IMG/VR virus record: IMGVR_UViG_3300028591_000084 | Strand: one strand, 5' to 3' | Source of the DNA: a virus | Taxonomy: Duplodnaviria > Caudoviricetes | DNA length: 64,000 nt | Part shown: positions 1 through 54,432 of the stretch, piece after piece | Numbering within the stretch: position 1 is the first letter of the stretch | How the letters are laid out: every line of letters begins with the position of its first letter | Made by a program: the position numbers and the translations under genes | Notes under the pieces: model-generated | Told to the model about the DNA's origin: nothing | Databases searched by the model: none | Seen by the model: only the letters and a program-made list of their open reading frames with translations

Positions 1-170
1 ATTTAGTGATACATTTTTTCGACAAAAACGTCTATATAGTAAATGACATCTGGCGGCTAAAAAATGTATCATTTTTACTGGTTTCATGTCTTCTTTAGAT
101 CCTCTCATCCTGATACTTTTTGAAAAAAAGAAAGAGGCCTGGTCGTTTAAGCGACCATGGTCTCTAATAA
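1..170. repeat. Copy 1 of ~170 bp repeat (13-bp-arm palindrome plus minus-strand terminator); may continue beyond the window
   Basis: TGATACATTTTTT...AAAAAATGTATCA arms around CAAAAACGTCTATATAGTAAATGACATCTG, which is identical in copy 2. Confidence 0.85.
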
Positions 171-174
171 TTAA

Positions 175-231
175 TCATTTAATCTTTAAAATTTCAAATC
201 CTCTATCTCTTCTACCAATTTGATTACTAAT
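175..231 (-). pseudogene. Orphan 3' end of a third SF2-helicase-like paralogue
   Basis: Translates ISNQIGRRDRGFEILKIK*, matching C-termini ISNPKTNKRDPGFEILQVK and ISNKETGKRDSGFEILGLKE; in-frame stop upstream and no start codon. Confidence 0.75.
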
Positions 232-268
232 ATACCCTGATAGTTGTAATTAAATATAAATATAATAA

Positions 269-440
269 ATTTAAATGTACCATTTTTTCGGCAAAAACGT
301 CTATATAGTAAATGACATCTGACGGCTAAAAAATGGTACAATTTTAGTATGAGTGTCTTATTTAGATCCTCTCAGTGCAAACCTTTTTTGAATAAAAAAA
401 GAAAAGAGACCGGGGGCTATGTTGCCCACGATCTCTTAAT
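269..440. repeat. Copy 2 of ~170 bp repeat (palindrome plus terminator of the helicase gene)
   Basis: TGTACCATTTTTT...AAAAAATGGTACA arms with compensatory changes relative to copy 1. Confidence 0.85.
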
Positions 441-447
441 AGGTGTT

Positions 448-2535
448 TTATTTTACCTGCAAAATCTCAAAACCAGGATCTCTCTTATTCGTCTTTGGAT
501 TTGAGATTAAACAATACTTAACTTCAAACCAATTTTCTATTTCACTAGCCTTAGCTTTTTTTGAAATATTATTCTCGTTATATGCTGCTTGGATCTTAGC
601 TTTAATATCGGCCTTAGTATATTTTTCGCCAATAACAAACCTTTTCATTATAGAATCTCTTAGCTTACCTCCTTGTGATCCAATTAAGACTTGCAATTCA
701 TCTCTCAGTCGTTCTCTTCTGTAACCAAGAGCCTTTATTCTCTCCAACCCAAGGACATTATAAAATCCTACAAATTCCGTTGATGAAACTTGAAGAATAT
801 TATCCAATATCCTAGGATCATTAATATCAATAACTGTATCATAGAAAAGTTTCAATTTATCTTCCAAACTCTTCAAGGACTTTAGATCTTCAGCATACTT
901 ATCGACCATTTTACTAACCTCCTGATTGGCGTAATTTAGACCCATAGATTCGAACCTATTAAAAACAGTGAATCTATCTTTATAATCCAGTTGCTGAATA
1001 TCAAATGCCCTTTGTTCTGCTATTAGGACAAGGTTATTAAGGACTGGAGCTGGTTGAGAACCAGAGTGTCTACTTATACCAATATAGTCCTCAGAGTAAG
1101 AAGAATAGTCAATATCATGCGAATATTTCAGGAGTAAAGCTCTTTTACCCTCAATATCATCCTCATTATTGTAGGTTCTCAGTAACTTCTCTGTGATTCT
1201 TTTCTTATTCTTAACAATATCATCAAACTGTTCCTTTGTTATTTCTTTTTTACAGTTAGTGACGATAAACATCTCAGCTCTGTCTTTCCAAGGGTTAATC
1301 TCTAATCTCTGTCTTCCCATAATCTGAGGTAGATCTAGGGTAATATCAACAGACAAAGAATCAATATTAGCATCACTAAAGATAAACGTTCTAGCACAAG
1401 GACTATAAAAATCTGCCCCAAGATAAACGGTTCTAGTACAGAAAGTAAACATCTTTCTTGTTTCATCTTTCTTAGGTACTTTCCCAATAACCTGGACCTT
1501 ATTGTCTGTTATTCTGAATGCTTTTCTTAGTTTAATCTCATTTTCTTTTGTTCTAGCACAAAGAACATTACACTCATCCAGGGTTAGGTGATTAGACTTA
1601 ATAGCGTTACAGATATCCTTTACTGAATTAAGATACAGAACAGCTTCAGTCGACTGAATAGTTATAACTTCCCCATTATCAGCTTTTTGAGAAAACATAT
1701 CACCCCTATTAGCCCTATATCTTCTAACAATCTTCTTCAGTTCTCCCGCTAAGGTTTTCTTGGGAAATTCATTAGGACCACACCAAGTTATCTCTAAGTT
1801 TGGTTTTGTAACTCGATTGGGGTCTTCTTTTATCCAGTCTAACTCAATATAAGGAAGATCTTTAAACTCATCCATCTGATCGAGATAAGACTCAATCATA
1901 GGAGTAGCTGATACAAAACAGACCTTTTGAAGATCTTGAACCTGCTCGACAAACTCTAATTCTGTGTCGGCCTTAAATCTGGCGTCGACGAAAATTGACT
2001 GAAACTCATCGATAACTACTTGAAAATTGGGCAGTACACCAAGTTTGTTCAGTGCTTCCTTAACGTGCCTAAAAGAATCGTAAGTCACGAGAAATTTAAC
2101 AGGTCTTCCTATTCTCTTACATTTTTTGTAATAATCAACTACTTCATTTTTTAGACTAATAACTCTTGTTTTCAGTCCATTAAGTCTTTCTGTCTCAAGC
2201 CGTTCATAATATTCATCCCAGGACTCATCAGGACCCTTCGTACTTGGAATATCTTTCTTCCTTTCCAGATCTTTTTCAAAATTAGCGATCTTTTCATACT
2301 CATTTCTTACATAAAAAACTTCTCCGGGATGTTGATCCTCTTTATTCTCTAATAAAATTCTTCTTGGGGAACAAAGAATAAGATCCTGCTCATTTGTTAA
2401 GCAGTATTCAGTAAATCCACAACCCGTCAAGAGTTTATTGAGAATATGAGGAAAATCATACTTACTCAGAGAATAATCTTTCCAATCACTTAAGTACCTA
2501 ATTCCTCTCGGCACTATTATTTGTCTTTTTTCCAC
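448..2535 (-). CDS. SF2 (DExx) helicase-like protein, possibly origin-binding, with C-terminal putative DNA-binding domain; paralogue A
   Basis: Degenerate Walker A TGCGFT, VIDEFQ, SATP, YLGADFY, LPQIMGRQR; collinear with 46830-48992. Confidence 0.75.
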   Translation of the reverse strand: MEKRQIIVPRGIRYLSDWKDYSLSKYDFPHILNKLLTGCGFTEYCLTNEQDLILCSPRRILLENKEDQHPGEVFYVRNEYEKIANFEKDLERKKDIPSTKGPDESWDEYYERLETERLNGLKTRVISLKNEVVDYYKKCKRIGRPVKFLVTYDSFRHVKEALNKLGVLPNFQVVIDEFQSIFVDARFKADTELEFVEQVQDLQKVCFVSATPMIESYLDQMDEFKDLPYIELDWIKEDPNRVTKPNLEITWCGPNEFPKKTLAGELKKIVRRYRANRGDMFSQKADNGEVITIQSTEAVLYLNSVKDICNAIKSNHLTLDECNVLCARTKENEIKLRKAFRITDNKVQVIGKVPKKDETRKMFTFCTRTVYLGADFYSPCARTFIFSDANIDSLSVDITLDLPQIMGRQRLEINPWKDRAEMFIVTNCKKEITKEQFDDIVKNKKRITEKLLRTYNNEDDIEGKRALLLKYSHDIDYSSYSEDYIGISRHSGSQPAPVLNNLVLIAEQRAFDIQQLDYKDRFTVFNRFESMGLNYANQEVSKMVDKYAEDLKSLKSLEDKLKLFYDTVIDINDPRILDNILQVSSTEFVGFYNVLGLERIKALGYRRERLRDELQVLIGSQGGKLRDSIMKRFVIGEKYTKADIKAKIQAAYNENNISKKAKASEIENWFEVKYCLISNPKTNKRDPGFEILQVK

Positions 2536-2909
2536 TTCAATATTAATCTAAATTTAGTATCTTCTATGAATTTAAACTCCTCTTCAAGGGATCTAATCAT
2601 TTCTCTTTCTCTTTTTACTTTATACTTTGGACAATATTCTACAAAAAAACACCACCATGCAGCAACACGGCCAATGGTTGTATCTTCCTCTGCTAGCTTT
2701 TCTAAACGGACAAATTGGTTAAAATAATGCCAGCCATAATATTTCAAGCTATCCCGAGGTAAGAAATAAATATCATTCTCTTTTAGGAACAAGTAGACAT
2801 TCCTCTTAGAAAAAATCTCCTCTTTGCTAATAAAATATAAAGTTTCTCTTATATTTTCGTCAACAATAGCTTTCGTTCTTGGAAAACTAATCTTATAAAG
2901 CCGTTTCAT
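2517..2909 (-). CDS. hypothetical protein
   Basis: 130 aa ORF in an operon-like run. Confidence 0.6.
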   Translation of the reverse strand: MKRLYKISFPRTKAIVDENIRETLYFISKEEIFSKRNVYLFLKENDIYFLPRDSLKYYGWHYFNQFVRLEKLAEEDTTIGRVAAWWCFFVEYCPKYKVKREREMIRSLEEEFKFIEDTKFRLILKWKKDK

Positions 2910-2915
2910 ATCCTC

Positions 2916-3248
2916 TTACGGCATCATCGGTTCACTGTCTATCTTAAACTTACCTGTCTTTGAATCAATAGAAAATGTACCAATTGAGCTAGGGGAACGA
3001 AGACCTGTACGGCCCTCAAAAAAGTATAGAGTTCTATCTATTACAAATTTTTTACTAGCTATCTTAGATCCCATTAAGAAAACTAACGTATCCTTAATCT
3101 CTTCATAAATAGTCTCTTTGTCTTTCTTATTCAGGCCTAAATACTCTTCTCCCTCTAGAAGTACTGTCTTAGATTTAACACCATTAGGATATAACACACA
3201 AAAGTCTCTATTACCAAAAAGTAAATGATAGTAATATTTCATTTTCAA
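2916..3248 (-). CDS. hypothetical protein, paralogue of 3245-3583
   Basis: Shared IYxExxDxL...SKKF/YxID motif. Confidence 0.65.
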   Translation of the reverse strand: MKMKYYYHLLFGNRDFCVLYPNGVKSKTVLLEGEEYLGLNKKDKETIYEEIKDTLVFLMGSKIASKKFVIDRTLYFFEGRTGLRSPSSIGTFSIDSKTGKFKIDSEPMMP

Positions 3249-6573: not shown

Positions 6574-6704
6574 GTTAACTTAACGCTAACTAAAGACTTA
6601 ATATTCTAATCTTTGTAACTACTTAATATCCTTAAATTGGAGACGTAGTTTATTTTTTTTTTCATCCCGTTAATTCTTTATTTATGATTAAATAACGCAA
6701 ATAT

Positions 6705-46318: not shown

Positions 46319-46447
46319 AATCCATAATTATTAAAATTTATTAAAATAATTAAACCTGAAATTTATTATTTTACTCATATATTAAGGAGCAGGTTGGATA
46401 TTATCGGTAAAATTAACATTTGGGGAAAGAAATTGAAAGAAAATTTT

Positions 46448-46767
46448 AGTGATAGGCAGTAGCAAACAGGGAGTCTCGCCTTCCCCTATTCGGCCATTCC
46501 TTCCTTCACTAAACGTTTCAGAAGGAAAACCCGAAACTCCCTGGATACGCCCCACGCTCGGCCCAAAAATTACAGGGGCCTCGCTCTTTATGGGGCTACG
46601 CTTTTGACAATATACCCCTGAATTTTAACTGTAATATTTTTTAGTAAAATATATGAGATAAGCGTTTTCTTAGTATATATACGAAAATGGAACAAAAATA
46701 TTACACTTTTTACTGGTAAATTCAGTCAAAAACCTAATATTTGAGGGGTTTGCTATTGCCTATCACT
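46448..46767. repeat. origin-like region: 20-bp inverted repeats enclosing GC-rich hairpins and a palindrome
   Basis: 46448-46467 vs 46748-46767 match 19/20; TGTAATATTTTT/AAAAATATTACA palindrome. Confidence 0.6.
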
Positions 46768-46829: not shown

Positions 46830-48992
46830 ATGAATATTAAGTACTATCGTACTGAAAATTTATTTAATGATTCAGAGAAAGAGATGTTATTGGGGGCTTA
46901 TTATAAAAATTTTAATTGTTCTGAGATCCTAGTAACACCAGAAAATGGGGAGCCTATAAAAAAATTAGTAGTAAAAATTAGTGAGGGCCATAAGTATGTT
47001 GATGATAGTTGGTACGAATTGCCCAGAGGAAGAGTAGTTCTTGATAAAGGAATAACAGGTTGTGGGATGACTGAATTAGCCTTAACCTGTAAAAATAGAA
47101 ATGTAATAGTACTCAGCCCTCGTCTTTTACTTTTAGAAAATAAGGCCGAACAGCATAAACAAGATCCAAATATTCTTTACTTAGATGTGACTTATGAGAA
47201 GGATACGGTTAATCTGGCAACTGGTGAAGTAAAGAAATCTAAAAAGAATAAGATAACTTATGAGGAGTTTCTTTCTATAACCAGGGATCGTATATCTAAT
47301 CATATAATTTCCTGTGCTCAACATAAGATGTGCGTAAAGTTCTTAGTTACTTACGATTCTGCTCATTATATTATTGATTTTTTAAGAGAGTATAATGCTT
47401 TAGGTAACTATACTTTTGTTGTAGATGAGATGCAGTCGCTACTGACCGATGCCTTTTTTAAACCAGAAATTGAGAATGAATTAATTACTCAATTATCTCA
47501 ACCAGACATAAGTAATGTTATTTATCTATCAGCTACTCCAATGATGGATGAGTATCTCTATCAGTTAGACGAGTTCAAAGAAATACGATATTATATGGAA
47601 CTAGATTGGACAGAGTCAGGGTTTGTAAGTAAGGTTACTGTCAATAAGAGTCAAACTACAGATCTAATGAGAGAGATGAGATCGATCATTGAAAAATATC
47701 AGAAGGGTATTTATCCTACATATACGGATCCTAATACTGGACAAGTATATATATCGACTGAGGCTGTTTTTTACGTTAACTCGGTAAAACAGATAGTGAA
47801 TACAATAAAAAGAATGAAACTTCTTCCTGATCAAGTAAATATTCTTATTTCTAAAACTCCAGAAAATCAGAAAAAGTTGTATACAATCGGTTTAAGGGAT
47901 GAAAATGATAAAAAATATTCCTATAAGTTTGGTACAATTCCTGGTAAAGGGGAACCACATAAGATGTTTACTTTCTGCACTTCAACTGTATATGTCGGAG
48001 CGGATTTTTATTCAACTTGTGCATCTACTTTTATTTTCGCAGACAGTAATATTAGTTGCTTGGCTCTAGATATTAGTACTGATCTCCCTCAAATTGTAGG
48101 GCGCCAAAGACTTGTTAGTAATGTCTTTAAAAATCAAGTAACTTTGTTCTTTAAAGTTACAAGAGAGTCGGGGTTTGCAAGTAGGGAAGACTTTGATGCT
48201 CTTCAGGAAGAACGCATGAAAGAGACAAAAATAATGATCAGGGTCTGGGAAAACCTAGATGAAGAAGCACGTAGAGTTATTTTATCTAGATACTTAGTGG
48301 CTATTAAGTATTTACAGTATGAAAAAGACTTTCTAGGATATTCAAAGACGACTGGCAAGTGTGTTGTTAATAAATTAGTTCGATTAGCTGATGAGAGAGC
48401 TTTTGAGCTTCAACAACGACTATATTCTAGTACTTTGATGGTAGTTAAAACTATTGAGGATCTTGATATAGTAGAGCAGGTTCAGAACGTTGATGAGGAA
48501 TTGAAAAGTAGGTTAGACCAGTTCCTAGCTTGTTTTTATAGTTTTGGACTTTTTACAGATCGGCTAAAATATCTTTGTGAGTTTTTGGATCTTTTTGATG
48601 ATTTCCCAGAAAATAAGCAGAGATTAATAAGTATTTTGAGTTATAGATTACCTAAAGATGTTTACTTATCGGCTTATCTTGCTTTAGGTACTAAAGGCTG
48701 CTCGGCTAGAAAGTATAGAGAAAAAGATATTAGGAAATTACTTTATAGTAGTACTAAAGAAGTTACAGTTTCTTTGAAAACTAAAGTTCTTGAAACTTTT
48801 GAGATAGGTAAAAAATATACGAAAGAAGGAATTAAAAAGACACTGGGAGATATTTATGATAGTGTTGGTAATAAAAGAAGGCCTAAAGCATCTGATCTAT
48901 TAAACTATTTTGAATTAAAAGATTGTTTAATTAGCAATAAAGAAACTGGCAAAAGAGATAGTGGTTTTGAAATATTAGGATTAAAAGAGTAA
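46830..48992 (+). CDS. SF2 helicase-like protein, paralogue B
   Basis: TGCGMT, VVDEMQ, SATP, YVGADFY, LPQIVGRQR. Confidence 0.75.
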   Translation: MNIKYYRTENLFNDSEKEMLLGAYYKNFNCSEILVTPENGEPIKKLVVKISEGHKYVDDSWYELPRGRVVLDKGITGCGMTELALTCKNRNVIVLSPRLLLLENKAEQHKQDPNILYLDVTYEKDTVNLATGEVKKSKKNKITYEEFLSITRDRISNHIISCAQHKMCVKFLVTYDSAHYIIDFLREYNALGNYTFVVDEMQSLLTDAFFKPEIENELITQLSQPDISNVIYLSATPMMDEYLYQLDEFKEIRYYMELDWTESGFVSKVTVNKSQTTDLMREMRSIIEKYQKGIYPTYTDPNTGQVYISTEAVFYVNSVKQIVNTIKRMKLLPDQVNILISKTPENQKKLYTIGLRDENDKKYSYKFGTIPGKGEPHKMFTFCTSTVYVGADFYSTCASTFIFADSNISCLALDISTDLPQIVGRQRLVSNVFKNQVTLFFKVTRESGFASREDFDALQEERMKETKIMIRVWENLDEEARRVILSRYLVAIKYLQYEKDFLGYSKTTGKCVVNKLVRLADERAFELQQRLYSSTLMVVKTIEDLDIVEQVQNVDEELKSRLDQFLACFYSFGLFTDRLKYLCEFLDLFDDFPENKQRLISILSYRLPKDVYLSAYLALGTKGCSARKYREKDIRKLLYSSTKEVTVSLKTKVLETFEIGKKYTKEGIKKTLGDIYDSVGNKRRPKASDLLNYFELKDCLISNKETGKRDSGFEILGLKE

Positions 48993-49096: not shown

Positions 49097-50488
49097 TTAT
49101 TTGATTATTCTGATTATTTTGATAGAAGGCTTGTTGTTGAGAGTACAATCTTTGACTTCAAACCAGTTTCTAATATCAGAGCTTTGTGGATTTCTGATAT
49201 ATCCCATTTGTTTGTATATGGTTCTAAGTTTTTTCTCTAGATCTTTCTTAATTATTTTAGTTCCAGGCGAAAATAGTGGCCAAATTAAATGGCCCATCAT
49301 TTCTTTTATTCCTATACCATTAATCCATTCGATTCGATACACATTGTTTAACTTTCTATCTTTTGTTCTCACTATTTTTATATTATACTCTTCAAAATCC
49401 ACTAATTGATCTATTCCGGTATAGTAATTTAGGGATCTAAAGGCGTTATTAGCCCTGTCTATAAGATCTATCCTACTCATTGAATCTCCTGGTTTTAAGA
49501 ATTTTTTAAGTTTTTCTTCCAGGCATTTTCTTTGCTGTTCTTTTATGGTTCCAGGTATAGCCTCATCTCTTATACCCAGGATCTTTATACACAGTACCGG
49601 TCTTTTATTATTTAGTGTTTTTCTTTTTATTTTTTCCAAGATGAAGTATTTATCTAGCTCTCCTAATCTTGGTTTTTGTGGATAATCAACTTCTGAGTAG
49701 ATATTGGCTAAGATATTAAAAATTGTAGTTTGTGGAATACAGTCATTAATTTTCAATCTCAGAATTAGTTTCTCTCTTATTAAGTTGAAATCGTTAAATA
49801 CTTCTAGTCTATAGTTTTTATAGAGTATTCTAATATTATAATCTTTTTTTATAATTTCTTCTGTGTTATAATATTGGAGGACATCTTTATATCTTTTATC
49901 AGTTATATGTGTAATTAGATCTAGTATTTCCTTATCATCTTTATATTTCACTGCATATCTTAAGATCGTTGTGAAGTCATAGGATGAAATTTTACTTATT
50001 TTTTCATATACTTTTTTAATTTTCCCACCAGGTAACTTCCCTCCGTATTGGTCAAGGAAGTAGATTATATTATCAGCTTCATTAGGAAACAGAACTTTTA
50101 TTAATTTTTTATAATTTTCTTCTGTTTGCTGAATATTATAGTAGAGGATCCTTCCATATATCTCCTCTTCTGTCATTCTGTCCCTAAATGCGATCTTAAT
50201 AGCATTCATAATAGGCTCTGGATTATAGGACGTATCAGAAGTTTTAATATCAGGCAGATTACTACAATCTGTTTTTAGAAATTTTTCAACTTCATTCGGC
50301 CCTATAAATCCATCCCCTGTTCTGCTGAAGAGAATATTTATTTTATCGTAAGTGTCATCAGGCAAATCATATTCTTTCCAAATAATCTCTAGATTTGGAT
50401 TAAATTTTGTGATTAGTCTGAGTTCTCTTTCATCCTTAAGTTTTTCAAGCAAAAAACTTGAATCACTAAGTTTTCCAAGTACTATCAT
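49097..50488 (-). CDS. protein with three copies of the helicase C-terminal domain
   Basis: Last repeat FSPGTKIIKKDLEKKLRTIY...SDIRNWFEVKDC aligns with the helicase C-termini. Confidence 0.65.
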   Translation of the reverse strand: MIVLGKLSDSSFLLEKLKDERELRLITKFNPNLEIIWKEYDLPDDTYDKINILFSRTGDGFIGPNEVEKFLKTDCSNLPDIKTSDTSYNPEPIMNAIKIAFRDRMTEEEIYGRILYYNIQQTEENYKKLIKVLFPNEADNIIYFLDQYGGKLPGGKIKKVYEKISKISSYDFTTILRYAVKYKDDKEILDLITHITDKRYKDVLQYYNTEEIIKKDYNIRILYKNYRLEVFNDFNLIREKLILRLKINDCIPQTTIFNILANIYSEVDYPQKPRLGELDKYFILEKIKRKTLNNKRPVLCIKILGIRDEAIPGTIKEQQRKCLEEKLKKFLKPGDSMSRIDLIDRANNAFRSLNYYTGIDQLVDFEEYNIKIVRTKDRKLNNVYRIEWINGIGIKEMMGHLIWPLFSPGTKIIKKDLEKKLRTIYKQMGYIRNPQSSDIRNWFEVKDCTLNNKPSIKIIRIIK

Positions 50489-52572: not shown

Positions 52573-54432
52573 ATGGTTAACGAAAGTAGTAATTATTTTG
52601 ACTTAGTATTAGCTATGTTTAACCAATACCTCTTTCAGGAGTGTAAGTCTAACATTGATGACATTATGTATGCTTATCAGGTTACTCCCTCGACAAGTGA
52701 TAATGCCTTCGTGGAACAATTGCTTAGTGCAATTAAGAATTACAGCCTAGATAGTATTGGTTATCCCTTGTTTCAGAGTATTTTTAGTAGGACCGGTAAG
52801 ACGCAGGCCGAATCAACTGAAATACTAAATAAGATTGTTGAATATAAAAAATACACTAAGGATCAGATTGCACCGTTCCGAACTTTGATTCGTGATATTG
52901 TAGCTCATTCTTATATTATTCGAGCTAATAATCTATATGGTGATAGTCCTAGTGAATTTATTAGTTATCTCAAGAATACTACATTTAAGTCGTCTGAAGA
53001 GGACTATTTTGTGACGACGAAATTTAAGGATCTTGATATTAACACTATAATAGCAGAAAGAGCTGACGGTGGCATCCCCAGTGCTTTTAACTGGATTAAT
53101 CAAACTTTTAGACCAGAATGTTGTTATCCTACCTCTGGTTTGATGTGTATTGCTATGCCACCAGGATGTATGTCGGGAGATACTGAGGTATTCCTAGCAG
53201 ACGGGACTGTAGATACTTTAGAGAATCTATATAAGAAGAAGGTTGAAGGTATTACAGTTTATTCTTGTGATGGAGAAACATCAAAAGTCTCCGTTGCTGA
53301 AAATTGTCAGATTTCTAAGTATGTGAGTGAGTGGTATGTTGTGGAGGTTGATGGTAAAAGAGAATATAGAGTAACTGAAAATCACCCACTATTATTAATG
53401 GGTGGGGAATGGAAAAGAGCTGATAAGTTAAAGATTGGTGATACTTTAATGTCATTCAATATTAAGTCAGCAGATAAAACAACTCACACAATCACTAATG
53501 TTTATCTTGAAAAATTAGATACTCCTCATCCAGTATATGATCTAGTAAATGTAGCTCTTTATCATAATTATGCAGTTAAGTTTGATGATGAGTCTGGATT
53601 CTTCAGTCATAATACAGGTAAGACTCTGTTTTGTATGCAGGAGTGTTTAAATATGTGTTTGATGGGTAAAAAGTGTCATTATCTCTGTATGGGTGATATG
53701 ACAGAAGAGGATTTTATTATTAGAATGTCGGCTCAGTATTTAGGGATCCCATTTTATGAGGTTAAACGTAATATCCTTCAGTGTTACAATGAGTTAGCGA
53801 AAGCGATAGGTGATAATTTGTCTATTTCCTGTATTCCTGCCTCAGCAATGACGGTAGATGACTATGTTGAAGAGATGAAGAATAAGCCTTATGATGTTTT
53901 GTTTATTGATTATGATAGTCAATTTAAATCAAATGTGGCTACAGAATCTATGTACTTAACTTATGGCGATATCTATGCCAAGCTATCAGAACTGACAGTT
54001 TCATATAAAAAGCTTGTTTTCATCCTAGCCCAACCAATGAAAGCTGCTTGGAGTTTACCCGTTATCGAGATGGATCAAGTTGGTGAATCTGCCCGAAAGA
54101 TTCATACCGTCGATTGGTGCTTAACTAGGGCTAGACTTCCAGAGAATCTCAATGGTTTAGGAACTAGTAAAATTGTTAAGTCTAGACGAGGTGAGGAACA
54201 AGTTATAGATTATAATATCCGTTTATCTAATGGCAGATTTAAGTCAGTTCCAAAGAGCGTGTTTGAGAAATTGGCTGAGATAAAGGATAAGCAAGAGTTT
54301 AAGGAGGCTGAGATTGATCATTTTATTGAGTCTTATTATAGAATCAATAAGGAAATTCAGTCAGATATTAAAAAGAAAACAACAGCACCAGGGTCAAGTT
54401 CTGGAAAGGATGCTTTGCCTTGGGAAAATTAA
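52573..54432 (+). CDS. dnaB: DnaB-like replicative helicase containing an intein
   Basis: P-loop MPPG|TGKT split by the intein; LFIDY, ILAQP, KSRRG. Confidence 0.85.
   Translation: MVNESSNYFDLVLAMFNQYLFQECKSNIDDIMYAYQVTPSTSDNAFVEQLLSAIKNYSLDSIGYPLFQSIFSRTGKTQAESTEILNKIVEYKKYTKDQIAPFRTLIRDIVAHSYIIRANNLYGDSPSEFISYLKNTTFKSSEEDYFVTTKFKDLDINTIIAERADGGIPSAFNWINQTFRPECCYPTSGLMCIAMPPGCMSGDTEVFLADGTVDTLENLYKKKVEGITVYSCDGETSKVSVAENCQISKYVSEWYVVEVDGKREYRVTENHPLLLMGGEWKRADKLKIGDTLMSFNIKSADKTTHTITNVYLEKLDTPHPVYDLVNVALYHNYAVKFDDESGFFSHNTGKTLFCMQECLNMCLMGKKCHYLCMGDMTEEDFIIRMSAQYLGIPFYEVKRNILQCYNELAKAIGDNLSISCIPASAMTVDDYVEEMKNKPYDVLFIDYDSQFKSNVATESMYLTYGDIYAKLSELTVSYKKLVFILAQPMKAAWSLPVIEMDQVGESARKIHTVDWCLTRARLPENLNGLGTSKIVKSRRGEEQVIDYNIRLSNGRFKSVPKSVFEKLAEIKDKQEFKEAEIDHFIESYYRINKEIQSDIKKKTTAPGSSSGKDALPWEN
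53167..53613 (+). mobile_element. mini-intein (149 aa) in the DnaB Walker A motif
   Basis: CMSGDT start, VTENHP block B, VYDL...HNY, terminal SHN then +1 Thr; no endonuclease domain. Confidence 0.92.

Follow-up and report, generated by a model that had tools for sequence, protein, structure and literature searches.

The first 440 nt of the window, by which we mean the whole 64-kb stretch of DNA analysed here, carry two copies of one unit, about 269 bp apart. The overall reading, to which we assign a probability of about 0.55, is that this region is a duplicated unit from the 3′ flank of a helicase-like gene, and that the hairpin of this unit belongs to a composite helicase-linked element serving as a cis site at the DNA level. 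The covarying palindromes formed by the two hairpins are functional-looking members of this helicase-linked, probably DNA-level element. The stacked ends themselves are ordinary, yet they led to a helicase-linked element that seems to be undescribed; a full-text literature search returned no description of the helicase-like family or its elements.

The plus strand of the unit consists of TATACCCTGA, an AT spacer, a hairpin with a 13-bp stem and a 39-nt loop, a T tract and a 31-nt promoter-like motif; the remaining part, on the minus strand, comprises a terminator and the last 13–18 codons of the helicase family. Read along the minus strand, positions 1–560 comprise the last part of a 695-aa gene, a U-tailed hairpin, the conserved motif, a palindrome (340–276), an AT-rich stretch, TCAGGGTAT (232–240), an 18-codon frame with its stop codon (231–175), another U-tailed hairpin, a further copy of the motif and the other palindrome (71–7). 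The window starts 6 nt before the first hairpin, W1, and the left copy is incomplete. W1 occupies positions 7–71 and is not assigned to a strand; its arms are TGATACATTTTTT (7–19) and AAAAAATGTATCA (59–71), its loop spans 20–58, its DNA fold has an energy of −10.8 kcal/mol (z −3.6) and its stem shows covariation. It is adjoined by the T tract TTTTTACTGGT (72–82, plus strand); such a tract is conserved behind the second hairpin (W2), behind a third copy on another contig (G001a), behind the hairpin of helicase paralogue B and behind most hairpins of the family, where it is of the TTTTGC type. The following motif M′ (ATGTCTTCTTTAGATCCTCTCATCCTGATAC; 86–116, plus strand) resembles the upstream half of a helicase promoter. 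An intact version is located upstream of the helicase in locus L026 (AGATCCTCTCAAGTCCTTATGTATG), and the motif behind the hairpin (AGATCCTCTCA...) corresponds to the upstream half of that L026 promoter. Since the copy at 86–116 points toward a terminator, it is probably a decayed promoter-like motif. This terminator is intrinsic (122–165, minus strand; RNA fold −17.3 kcal/mol, z −4.7, then a U tract) and lies behind the orphan 18-codon end (ISNQIGRRDRGFEILKIK and stop; 175–231, minus strand; E 0.006) of the family's C-terminal winged-helix domain.

The second copy opens with TATACCCTGA and its AT-rich spacer (231–275, plus strand), the 3′ end of the element's GC-rich part; in relatives, its counterpart is the ...YTGAAT with which the GC-rich part ends. 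Hairpin W2 follows (276–340, not assigned to a strand), with the arms TGTACCATTTTTT (276–288) and AAAAAATGGTACA (328–340), a loop at 289–327, a fold of −12.1 kcal/mol (z −5.1) and covariation. Then come the second copy of M′ (353–383, plus strand) and the intrinsic terminator of helicase A (393–436, minus strand; RNA fold −20.7 kcal/mol, z −5.4, then a U tract). A terminator at each stacked end, as reported in the preliminary description of this DNA, is thereby borne out; a simple scanner overlooked both because their stems are bulged. The palindromes themselves do not look like intrinsic terminators: their stems are AT-rich, their loops are 39 nt long and the terminator scanner found none there. 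As genome-wide motifs, M′ and TCAGGGTAT are not enriched in the window. An Rfam 15 covariance-model scan of positions 1–3000 and of the G001 contig ends gave chance-level matches only, with nothing near gathering scores, and positions 1–3000 had no match in a phage genome collection.

The orphan frame at 175–231 is real. Comparison with the C-terminal 22 residues of helicase A gives 58% of 19 aa (E 0.006); within the window, only the protein itself and paralogue B match this tail better, and the next, a chance match, has an E value of 0.72. Its nucleotides can also be aligned with the 3′ ends of the genes for helicases A and B and for a homologue in another phage. The claim of an 18-codon helicase C-terminus holds as far as the frame is concerned, but secure homology is confined to the last 13 codons, and the first five overlap a motif common to the element and G001.

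The repeat finder gave arms of 13 nt, 100% complementary, around 39 nt for both W1 and W2, along with direct repeats 267–269 bp apart in positions 1–440. The arms of the two hairpins differ at 4 positions, each of them compensated, which agrees with the original observation of palindromes whose arms differ and yet stay complementary. Their loops are identical at 37 of 39 positions; by our own reading, the two differing positions are opposed in the fold, A·G in W1 and G001a and G·A in W2. The invariant core, given earlier as 30 bp, is exact in both copies but measures 29 nt. It occurs nowhere else in the 64 kb (0 expected), where a hairpin variant is present at paralogue B. Collections were scanned with the 29-nt core (viral contigs) or with a 22-nt part of it (metagenomes), and the two scans returned only one further contig, the same record in both collections. 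This 109-kb contig (G001; loci L001/L009) contains the third copy, with the same loop and a third stem variant, TGTATTATTTTTT/AAAAAATAATACA; it shares nothing else with the window parts compared with it, yet the loop is kept. An 18-mer match in a giant-virus MAG lacks the palindrome and was rejected as a chance match.

Taken together, the three copies (W1, W2 and G001a) have 39/39 stem cells paired, with 4 pairs changed on both sides. The observed percent paired and covariation score were reached in 1/500 shuffles and the number of pairs changed on both sides in 4/500; sliding the register of the stem alignment lowers pairing to about 50%. The arm cores are different in every copy (ATAC, TACC, TATT, TAAT) and across the family, and complementarity alone is kept. 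In window-type stems, pairing is the sole requirement and the sequence is free. The loop and the flanking motif are more constrained than their surroundings, because, in the copy-to-copy alignment, conservation is visibly lower in the terminators than in the loop and the orphan codons have also diverged: over its final 42 nt, the orphan shares about 67% identity with helicase A and about 76% with helicase B (own counts on the alignment, the gap between the two values not being meaningful). Within the core of M′, 14 nt (TTTAGATCCTCTCA) are identical between the copies.

Helicase A (P0001, 695 aa; 448–2535, minus strand) is predicted to have an SF2 helicase fold and a C-terminal winged helix. 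Paralogue B (720 aa; 46830–48992, plus strand) is 34% identical to it, and an accessory protein carrying the family's C-terminal domain is encoded at 49097–50488 on the minus strand (tblastn match 49273–49133, E 3e-5). Sequence searches with helicase A gave no match in Pfam, PHROGs, NCBIfam or the PDB. In metagenomes, the family exceeds 5,000 proteins, and several of its members can share one contig of 370–400 kb; paralogues are 34–50% identical. The AlphaFold (AF2) model of P0001 has a pLDDT of 83, and Foldseek matched it to Brr2, Hel308/Hjm, RecQ, BLM and WRN (E about 1e-7, probability 1.00). According to this model, P0001 has an SF2 fold with two tandem RecA-like domains. HSV-1 OBP appears at rank 48 among generic SF2 structure matches, and the comparison with UL9 suggested earlier gives no specific closeness.

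The Walker A site of P0001 departs from the GxGK[ST] pattern: it reads TGCGFTE, and the lysine is missing. Across 34 sequences, G38, C39, G40 and T42 of this site are invariant and none has the lysine; an invariant K34 is located four residues upstream of the site. Motif II, DEFQ (D176 and Q179), motif III, SATP (S209–P212), and motif VI, GRQR (G407–R410), are likewise invariant in the 34 sequences. Considering the predicted structure, 'helicase-like' seems a fair label for this protein. Its last 65 or so residues fold, in the model, as a winged helix with weak matches to the RFX DNA-binding domain (Z 5.9), the NrS-1 C-terminal region (5.0), Cdt1 (4.9), the phage P4 origin-binding domain (1ka8; 4.3) and the MCM8 winged helix (4.2).

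A complete element is found upstream of paralogue B (46441–46767, plus strand) and consists of an outer inverted repeat, GC-rich hairpins, AATATACCCCTGA, a hairpin and CTTTTTACTGG. The hairpin (46630–46705; arms TGTAATATTTTT / AAAAATATTACA) is located 124 nt upstream of the gene, within a 330-nt nested inverted-repeat region with GC-rich hairpins, and is flanked by the W1/W2 motifs in the same order, AATATACCCCTGA ahead and CTTTTTACTGG behind. This element stands between divergent transcription units. A 376-kb relative (G002, a phage contig within a MAG) encodes nine paralogues, and all nine have a conserved structured upstream region of about 400 nt; these upstream modules are of two types, present on five and four paralogues, and a BLAST search with either type finds those nine places only in this genome.

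A further sample of 80 loci was collected from IMG/VR by an alignment-based search, after a locus search with one protein alone had returned nothing, and most homologues in it have 500–900 nt of ORF-free DNA upstream and little downstream. A strict search for the hairpin pattern (5–8 variable nt and a T run, a 31–52-nt AT-rich loop, an A run and the complement) detected it in 15 of 55 distinct homologue upstream regions and in none of the other 40, with controls of 0.3 in shuffles, 0/53 inside genes and 3/42 far upstream. The family hairpins are followed by TTTTGC and then by a promoter-like CCTTA..TG box, the promoter lying within about 25–35 nt of the hairpin in canonical copies. Every stem is different, and every one is complementary. 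The hairpin is part of a composite non-coding element made up of GC-rich hairpins, an AT-stemmed long-loop hairpin, a T tract and a promoter, and this element is linked to one SF2 helicase-like family in a large clade of jumbo phages from rumen and gut. The link between palindromes and the helicase family that was proposed at the outset is supported by the variant upstream of paralogue B, the 15/55 homologues and the 9/9 paralogues of G002; a one-off duplication unconnected to the gene family, held out as the refuting case, does not account for hairpins that precede many paralogues elsewhere. The element is usually located 5′ of the gene; in positions 1–440 and in locus L041 it is found behind the helicase, and there it precedes no gene on the strand to which it belongs. 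In the 1–440 copies, the promoter-like part has degenerated, with the spacing and the CCTTA box lost.

Nine distinct hairpins of the GC-rich class, whose loops start with CCCACC or CCCTCC and end with GCC, comprise 104 stem pairs with 0 G·T and 1 A·C, wobble having been permitted in the search. The W1, W2, G001a and paralogue-B hairpins have perfect stems over 12–13 bp; in contrast, bulges and a wobble pair do occur in the real terminators of the phage. The 45-nt hairpin of one G002 paralogue (L015) is the exact reverse complement of the hairpin of two others (L014 and L016); the loop therefore exists both ways round relative to the same flanks. Set against L026, the L041 loop also seems to be turned round with respect to the GC-rich part, by our own reading and not by a formal alignment. 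Perfect stems and flipped loops favour a structure that is selected or self-corrected at the DNA level. On the basis of the nine wobble-free hairpins, which belong to another module class, three window-type perfect stems and the flipped loops, it seems about twice as probable that the element works at the level of DNA, folding into a hairpin or cruciform when single-stranded or supercoiled, as that it works at the level of RNA.

The RNA-level alternative is a composite terminator–promoter cassette, in which, as in the PeSL of T4-type phages, the hairpin and T tract end transcription arriving from the GC-rich region or from neighbouring genes just before the helicase promoter; the stack would then be due to recombination between cassettes. 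In nearly all copies, a T tract does follow the 3′ arm on the promoter side, with the promoter about 25–35 nt further on, and the hairpin takes the place where the phage's other genes have a terminator hairpin before the promoter's T-rich start; the promoter consensus of the window opens with a T-rich tract that is elsewhere the tail of the preceding terminator. PeSLs are, moreover, composite terminator/promoter motifs that mediate indels (PMC4122927). The hairpins themselves, however, have AT-rich stems and 31–52-nt loops, whereas the terminators of this phage are GC-rich and short-looped, and it is the loop sequence that is conserved while the stems are free to vary. The absence of G·U from the 104 pairs of the companion hairpins, the occurrence of flipped loops, which would alter an RNA, and the confinement to one gene family rather than to the surroundings of many unrelated small ORFs also make such a cassette unlikely, although the T tract leaves some room for an RNA-level terminator or insulator role.

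The units recur every 40–55 kb in G002 and in a 367-kb IMG/VR genome (G004). With each contig treated as a circle, the nine gaps of G002 have a coefficient of variation of 0.196 (p = 3e-5; 3/100,000 random placements) and the seven gaps of G004 one of 0.177 (p = 1.5e-4). A third complete genome has two copies only, and 46 kb separate helicase A from helicase B in the window. The even spacing suggests a role at chromosome scale. In the proposed mechanism, the element would be a cis site bound by the neighbouring helicase-like protein via its predicted winged helix, and this binding would control the protein's own promoter and/or load the protein for replication or recombination. Given the conserved loops, the copies in 1–440 are probably still used as sites.

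More specifically, the units could be replication origins, each served by its own initiator paralogue in a UL9/oriS-like or P4 alpha/ori-like arrangement, with 1–440 as a duplicated origin core. Even spacing in two genomes, DNA-like and perfectly Watson–Crick stems, the position of the paralogue-B element between divergent transcription units and an SF2 fold with a winged-helix tail, weakly similar to the P4 origin-binding domain, Cdt1 and MCM8 among others, all point in this direction. The units of G002, however, lie inside long same-strand gene blocks and not at divergence points, and the GC skew of this genome is correlated with the coding strand (r 0.91); with this dependence removed, no reversal remains around the units, the skew being transcription-dominated and the test weak for a phage. 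Nor do the arms form conserved boxes for protein binding; the protein lacks the Walker A lysine, and HSV OBP reaches only rank 48 among generic SF2 matches. The origin reading is improbable. It is equally improbable that the units are evenly spaced initiation sites of a multi-replicon or multi-domain jumbo-phage chromosome with private, co-evolving, Walker-A-degenerate winged-helix SF2 paralogues. If true, this arrangement would parallel, in a phage, a multi-origin chromosome whose initiators are private, and the doubled hairpins in 1–440 and L041, with one loop and two stems, would be two addresses at one site.

As judged from the sequence, a local tandem duplication of a unit of about 269–273 bp from the 3′ flank of helicase A explains positions 1–440. 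Because one such duplication accounts for the stack, neither a third paralogue nor a mobile element is needed, and nothing indicates that the orphan derives from a third helicase paralogue, as had been supposed. The duplicated segment would run from TATACCCTGA to about 13–18 codons inside the helicase; the left copy would retain the codon stub only, which is the orphan, and the right copy would run on into the intact gene. On the plus strand, the first block reads W1, T tract, M′, terminator and codon stub, and the second reads TATACCCTGA, spacer, W2, T tract, M′, terminator and helicase A, the terminators and coding parts of both being on the minus strand. The copies align in register over codons, terminator, M′ and hairpin, with a spacing of 269 bp from hairpin to hairpin and 273 bp from stop codon to stop codon. 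The duplication junction is located within about 216–232, at or just left of TATACCCTGA, which the codon stub abuts. The stub has diverged from helicase A to the extent expected of a non-coding copy of the same age. Hairpin-prone DNA would have favoured the slippage that duplicated the unit, and both copies would then have stayed under selection.

A parallel case is found on an unrelated contig (L041), where two hairpins about 305 bp apart are located behind a helicase and its terminator. They have identical 38–39-nt loops and different, compensated stems (GAACATTTTTT and ATGTAACATTTTTT), and one arm, together with 24 nt of its flank, is present at the locus a further time on its own, ahead of the GC-rich part. 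Local duplication around these hairpins therefore recurs. The G001 contig contains a further, more eroded unit that keeps the T run of a lost terminator and adjoins a complete element running off the contig end; both ends of G001 are inverted copies of the element's GC-rich part. An HMM search of the 80 loci for further orphan C-termini found no second case like 175–231, the hits being intact accessory genes with the domain and one partial antisense fragment (L030). An apparent orphan C-terminus in G002 turned out to be a frameshifted accessory gene.

The sole other contig with helicase A stops 22 nt past the stop codon, and several family contigs start just upstream of a helicase. Contigs ending at these repeats are expected if assemblies break there, and the start of the window is probably an assembly break at a repeat. 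G001 was considered as the missing third of the window's genome, the lengths adding up to 313 kb; the idea is weak, the 10-kb end of G001 being higher in GC and without the window's promoter motif. Several contigs, among them this one and G001 at both ends, begin or end at elements.

The preliminary description offered, as one of two readings, a mobile module of helicase plus end structure that inserts into, or replaces, the 3′ ends of its paralogues and leaves nested ends. Such a module is very unlikely. Stacked ends do recur in L041, where a 24-nt direct repeat also flanks a lone hairpin arm, and contig ends do coincide with elements in the window, at both ends of G001 and elsewhere; assembly breaks, however, are expected at any repeat. 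The stack matches a plain tandem duplication of about 270 bp, the usual place of the element is 5′ of the gene, and the paralogues are old (34–50% identity) and evenly spaced. As stated originally, no transposase or HUH motif is seen among the neighbouring proteins tested, which gave no matches in Pfam or PHROG (P0001 and paralogue B none in NCBIfam either); no transposase, HUH/Y1 protein or integrase was seen in or near the unit in the 64 kb, although an absent match cannot exclude one, and a target duplication was not seen.

A neutral relic, in which a one-off duplication left the 1–440 copies without function, is highly improbable, since, despite the lack of an own-strand gene after either copy and the degenerate promoter-like part, the loop and M′ have been preserved much better than the adjoining terminators and codons, stem changes are compensated throughout and the same loop is present on G001, which is otherwise dissimilar to the window parts compared. 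As a separate point against the overall reading, the two copies could be relics kept alike by gene conversion.

The genomes examined in this rumen and gut jumbo phage clade contain from two to nine diverged paralogues each, and in the one fully checked genome (G002) every paralogue has a private structured non-coding element. The regular 40–55-kb spacing points to a chromosome-scale function, be it replication, recombination or domain organisation. The elements and their proteins form a natural set of matched protein/DNA-hairpin pairs for studying structure-specific DNA recognition. On the practical side, several contigs begin or end at these elements.

Among known systems, HSV-1 UL9 with oriS/oriL also combines an SF2 helicase that has a C-terminal DNA-binding part, here predicted, with a palindromic AT-centred element beside or between genes, present in several copies per genome. 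UL9, however, binds conserved arm boxes and has a normal Walker A motif, whereas here the arms vary with pairing kept, the lysine is missing, each element has its own paralogue and there is no specific structural closeness (rank 48). The alpha protein of phage P4 is likewise a helicase with a winged-helix tail near a cis site, and the tail fold matches weakly (1ka8, Z 4.3); unlike the present family, it is an SF3 primase–helicase with a normal ATP site that binds direct iterons and serves one ori (ori/crr), and no sequence relation was found. Integron attC sites, the ends of IS200/IS605 elements and the promoters of the N4 virion RNAP share with the window-type hairpins a conserved pairing and a free stem sequence. 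Such freedom of the stem sequence under conserved pairing implies that single-stranded DNA is recognised in its folded form. These systems differ in stem size, loop size and core motifs, and no integrase, HUH/Y1 transposase or N4-type polymerase context was found here. The PeSL (promoter-early stem-loop) cassettes of T4-type phages consist of a stem-loop and a promoter, repeated in a large genome, and are linked to local duplications, deletions and gene shuffling; they surround many unrelated small ORFs in hyperplastic regions and contain ordinary terminators and sigma-70 early promoters (PMC2839356, PMC4122927). A stem-loop followed directly by a promoter is present in canonical copies of the element as well and is degenerate in 1–440. 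Unlike PeSLs, the element is tied to one gene family, the G002 modules being located upstream of the nine helicase paralogues only, and it has AT stems, conserved 31–52-nt loops, companion GC-rich hairpins and stems of a DNA-like character.

The two hairpins near the start of the window, W1 (7..71) and W2 (276..340), have loops that differ at only two positions, A at 22 and G at 53 in W1 and G at 291 and A at 322 in W2. In the predicted fold, these two positions lie opposite each other and would form a swapped purine–purine mismatch adjoined by two C–G pairs. The loop of G001a, a third copy of the hairpin found on the 109-kb viral contig G001, has the W1 state at both variable positions. In another phage, a hairpin upstream of a helicase gene (L033, 2841–2896) shares the arm TGTACCATTTT with W2, but its loop is unrelated to that of W2.

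The winged-helix domain of the helicases also occurs outside them. Many helicase paralogues are followed on the 3′ side by an accessory gene, the C-terminal end of which is the same winged-helix domain; such genes are located in L032 (4968–6014), L036 (5806–6069), L042 (5132–6154), L050 (5007–6446), G002:C18 (75899–76899) and the window (49097–50488). One accessory gene of G002, a 376-kb relative, is split by a frameshift ahead of this domain. Besides the orphan C-terminus at 175–231 of the window, a single stray piece of this domain turned up in 80 loci: it comprises 39 aa and is situated at a contig start (L030, 666–785, minus strand), antisense to and just upstream of a helicase gene. About one sixth of the helicase homologues are 950–1,090 aa long instead of the usual ~680 aa (L027, L035, L038, L043, L075, L078, L079, L085–L088, L099, L103 and L105). 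They contain a 0.8–1.2 kb in-frame insertion without stops, possibly an intein; an intein-like gene is also present in the window (52573–54432).

The common promoter of the window consists of a T-rich tract, CCC, N7, C(C/T)TTA, N4 and TG, and is found at 6654, 10031, 10334, 10841, 17991, 23971, 52318, 52408 and other positions. Its start often lies in the U tract of the terminator before it; composite terminator–promoter junctions are therefore the rule in this phage.

Both ends of G001 carry the same GC-rich element of ~220 nt (L001, 8090–8330, and L004, 1–240), inverted relative to each other and terminating in TATACCCTGA and an AT spacer. Since G001 (109,071 bp) and the longest contig with helicase A (204,228 bp) add up to ~313 kb, they might be parts of one genome, but their unlike GC content and promoter motifs count against this.

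Paralogue spacing is strikingly regular in both G002 and G004, a 367,385-bp genome. G002:C18 (376,162 bp; loci L014–L025 and L106–L124) has nine helicase-like copies separated by 28–60 kb (coefficient of variation of the gaps 0.196, p = 3e-5), and G004 has seven, separated by 38–68 kb (0.177, p = 1.5e-4). Three G002 paralogues have a 45-nt hairpin, AAAATCATATA ... TATATGATTTT, on their upstream side (~231.5 kb, 29.2 kb and 109.8 kb of G002:C18). Its 23-nt loop has one orientation at two of them (L014 and L016), whereas at the third (L015) it is the exact reverse complement; the two forms are a flip/flop pair.
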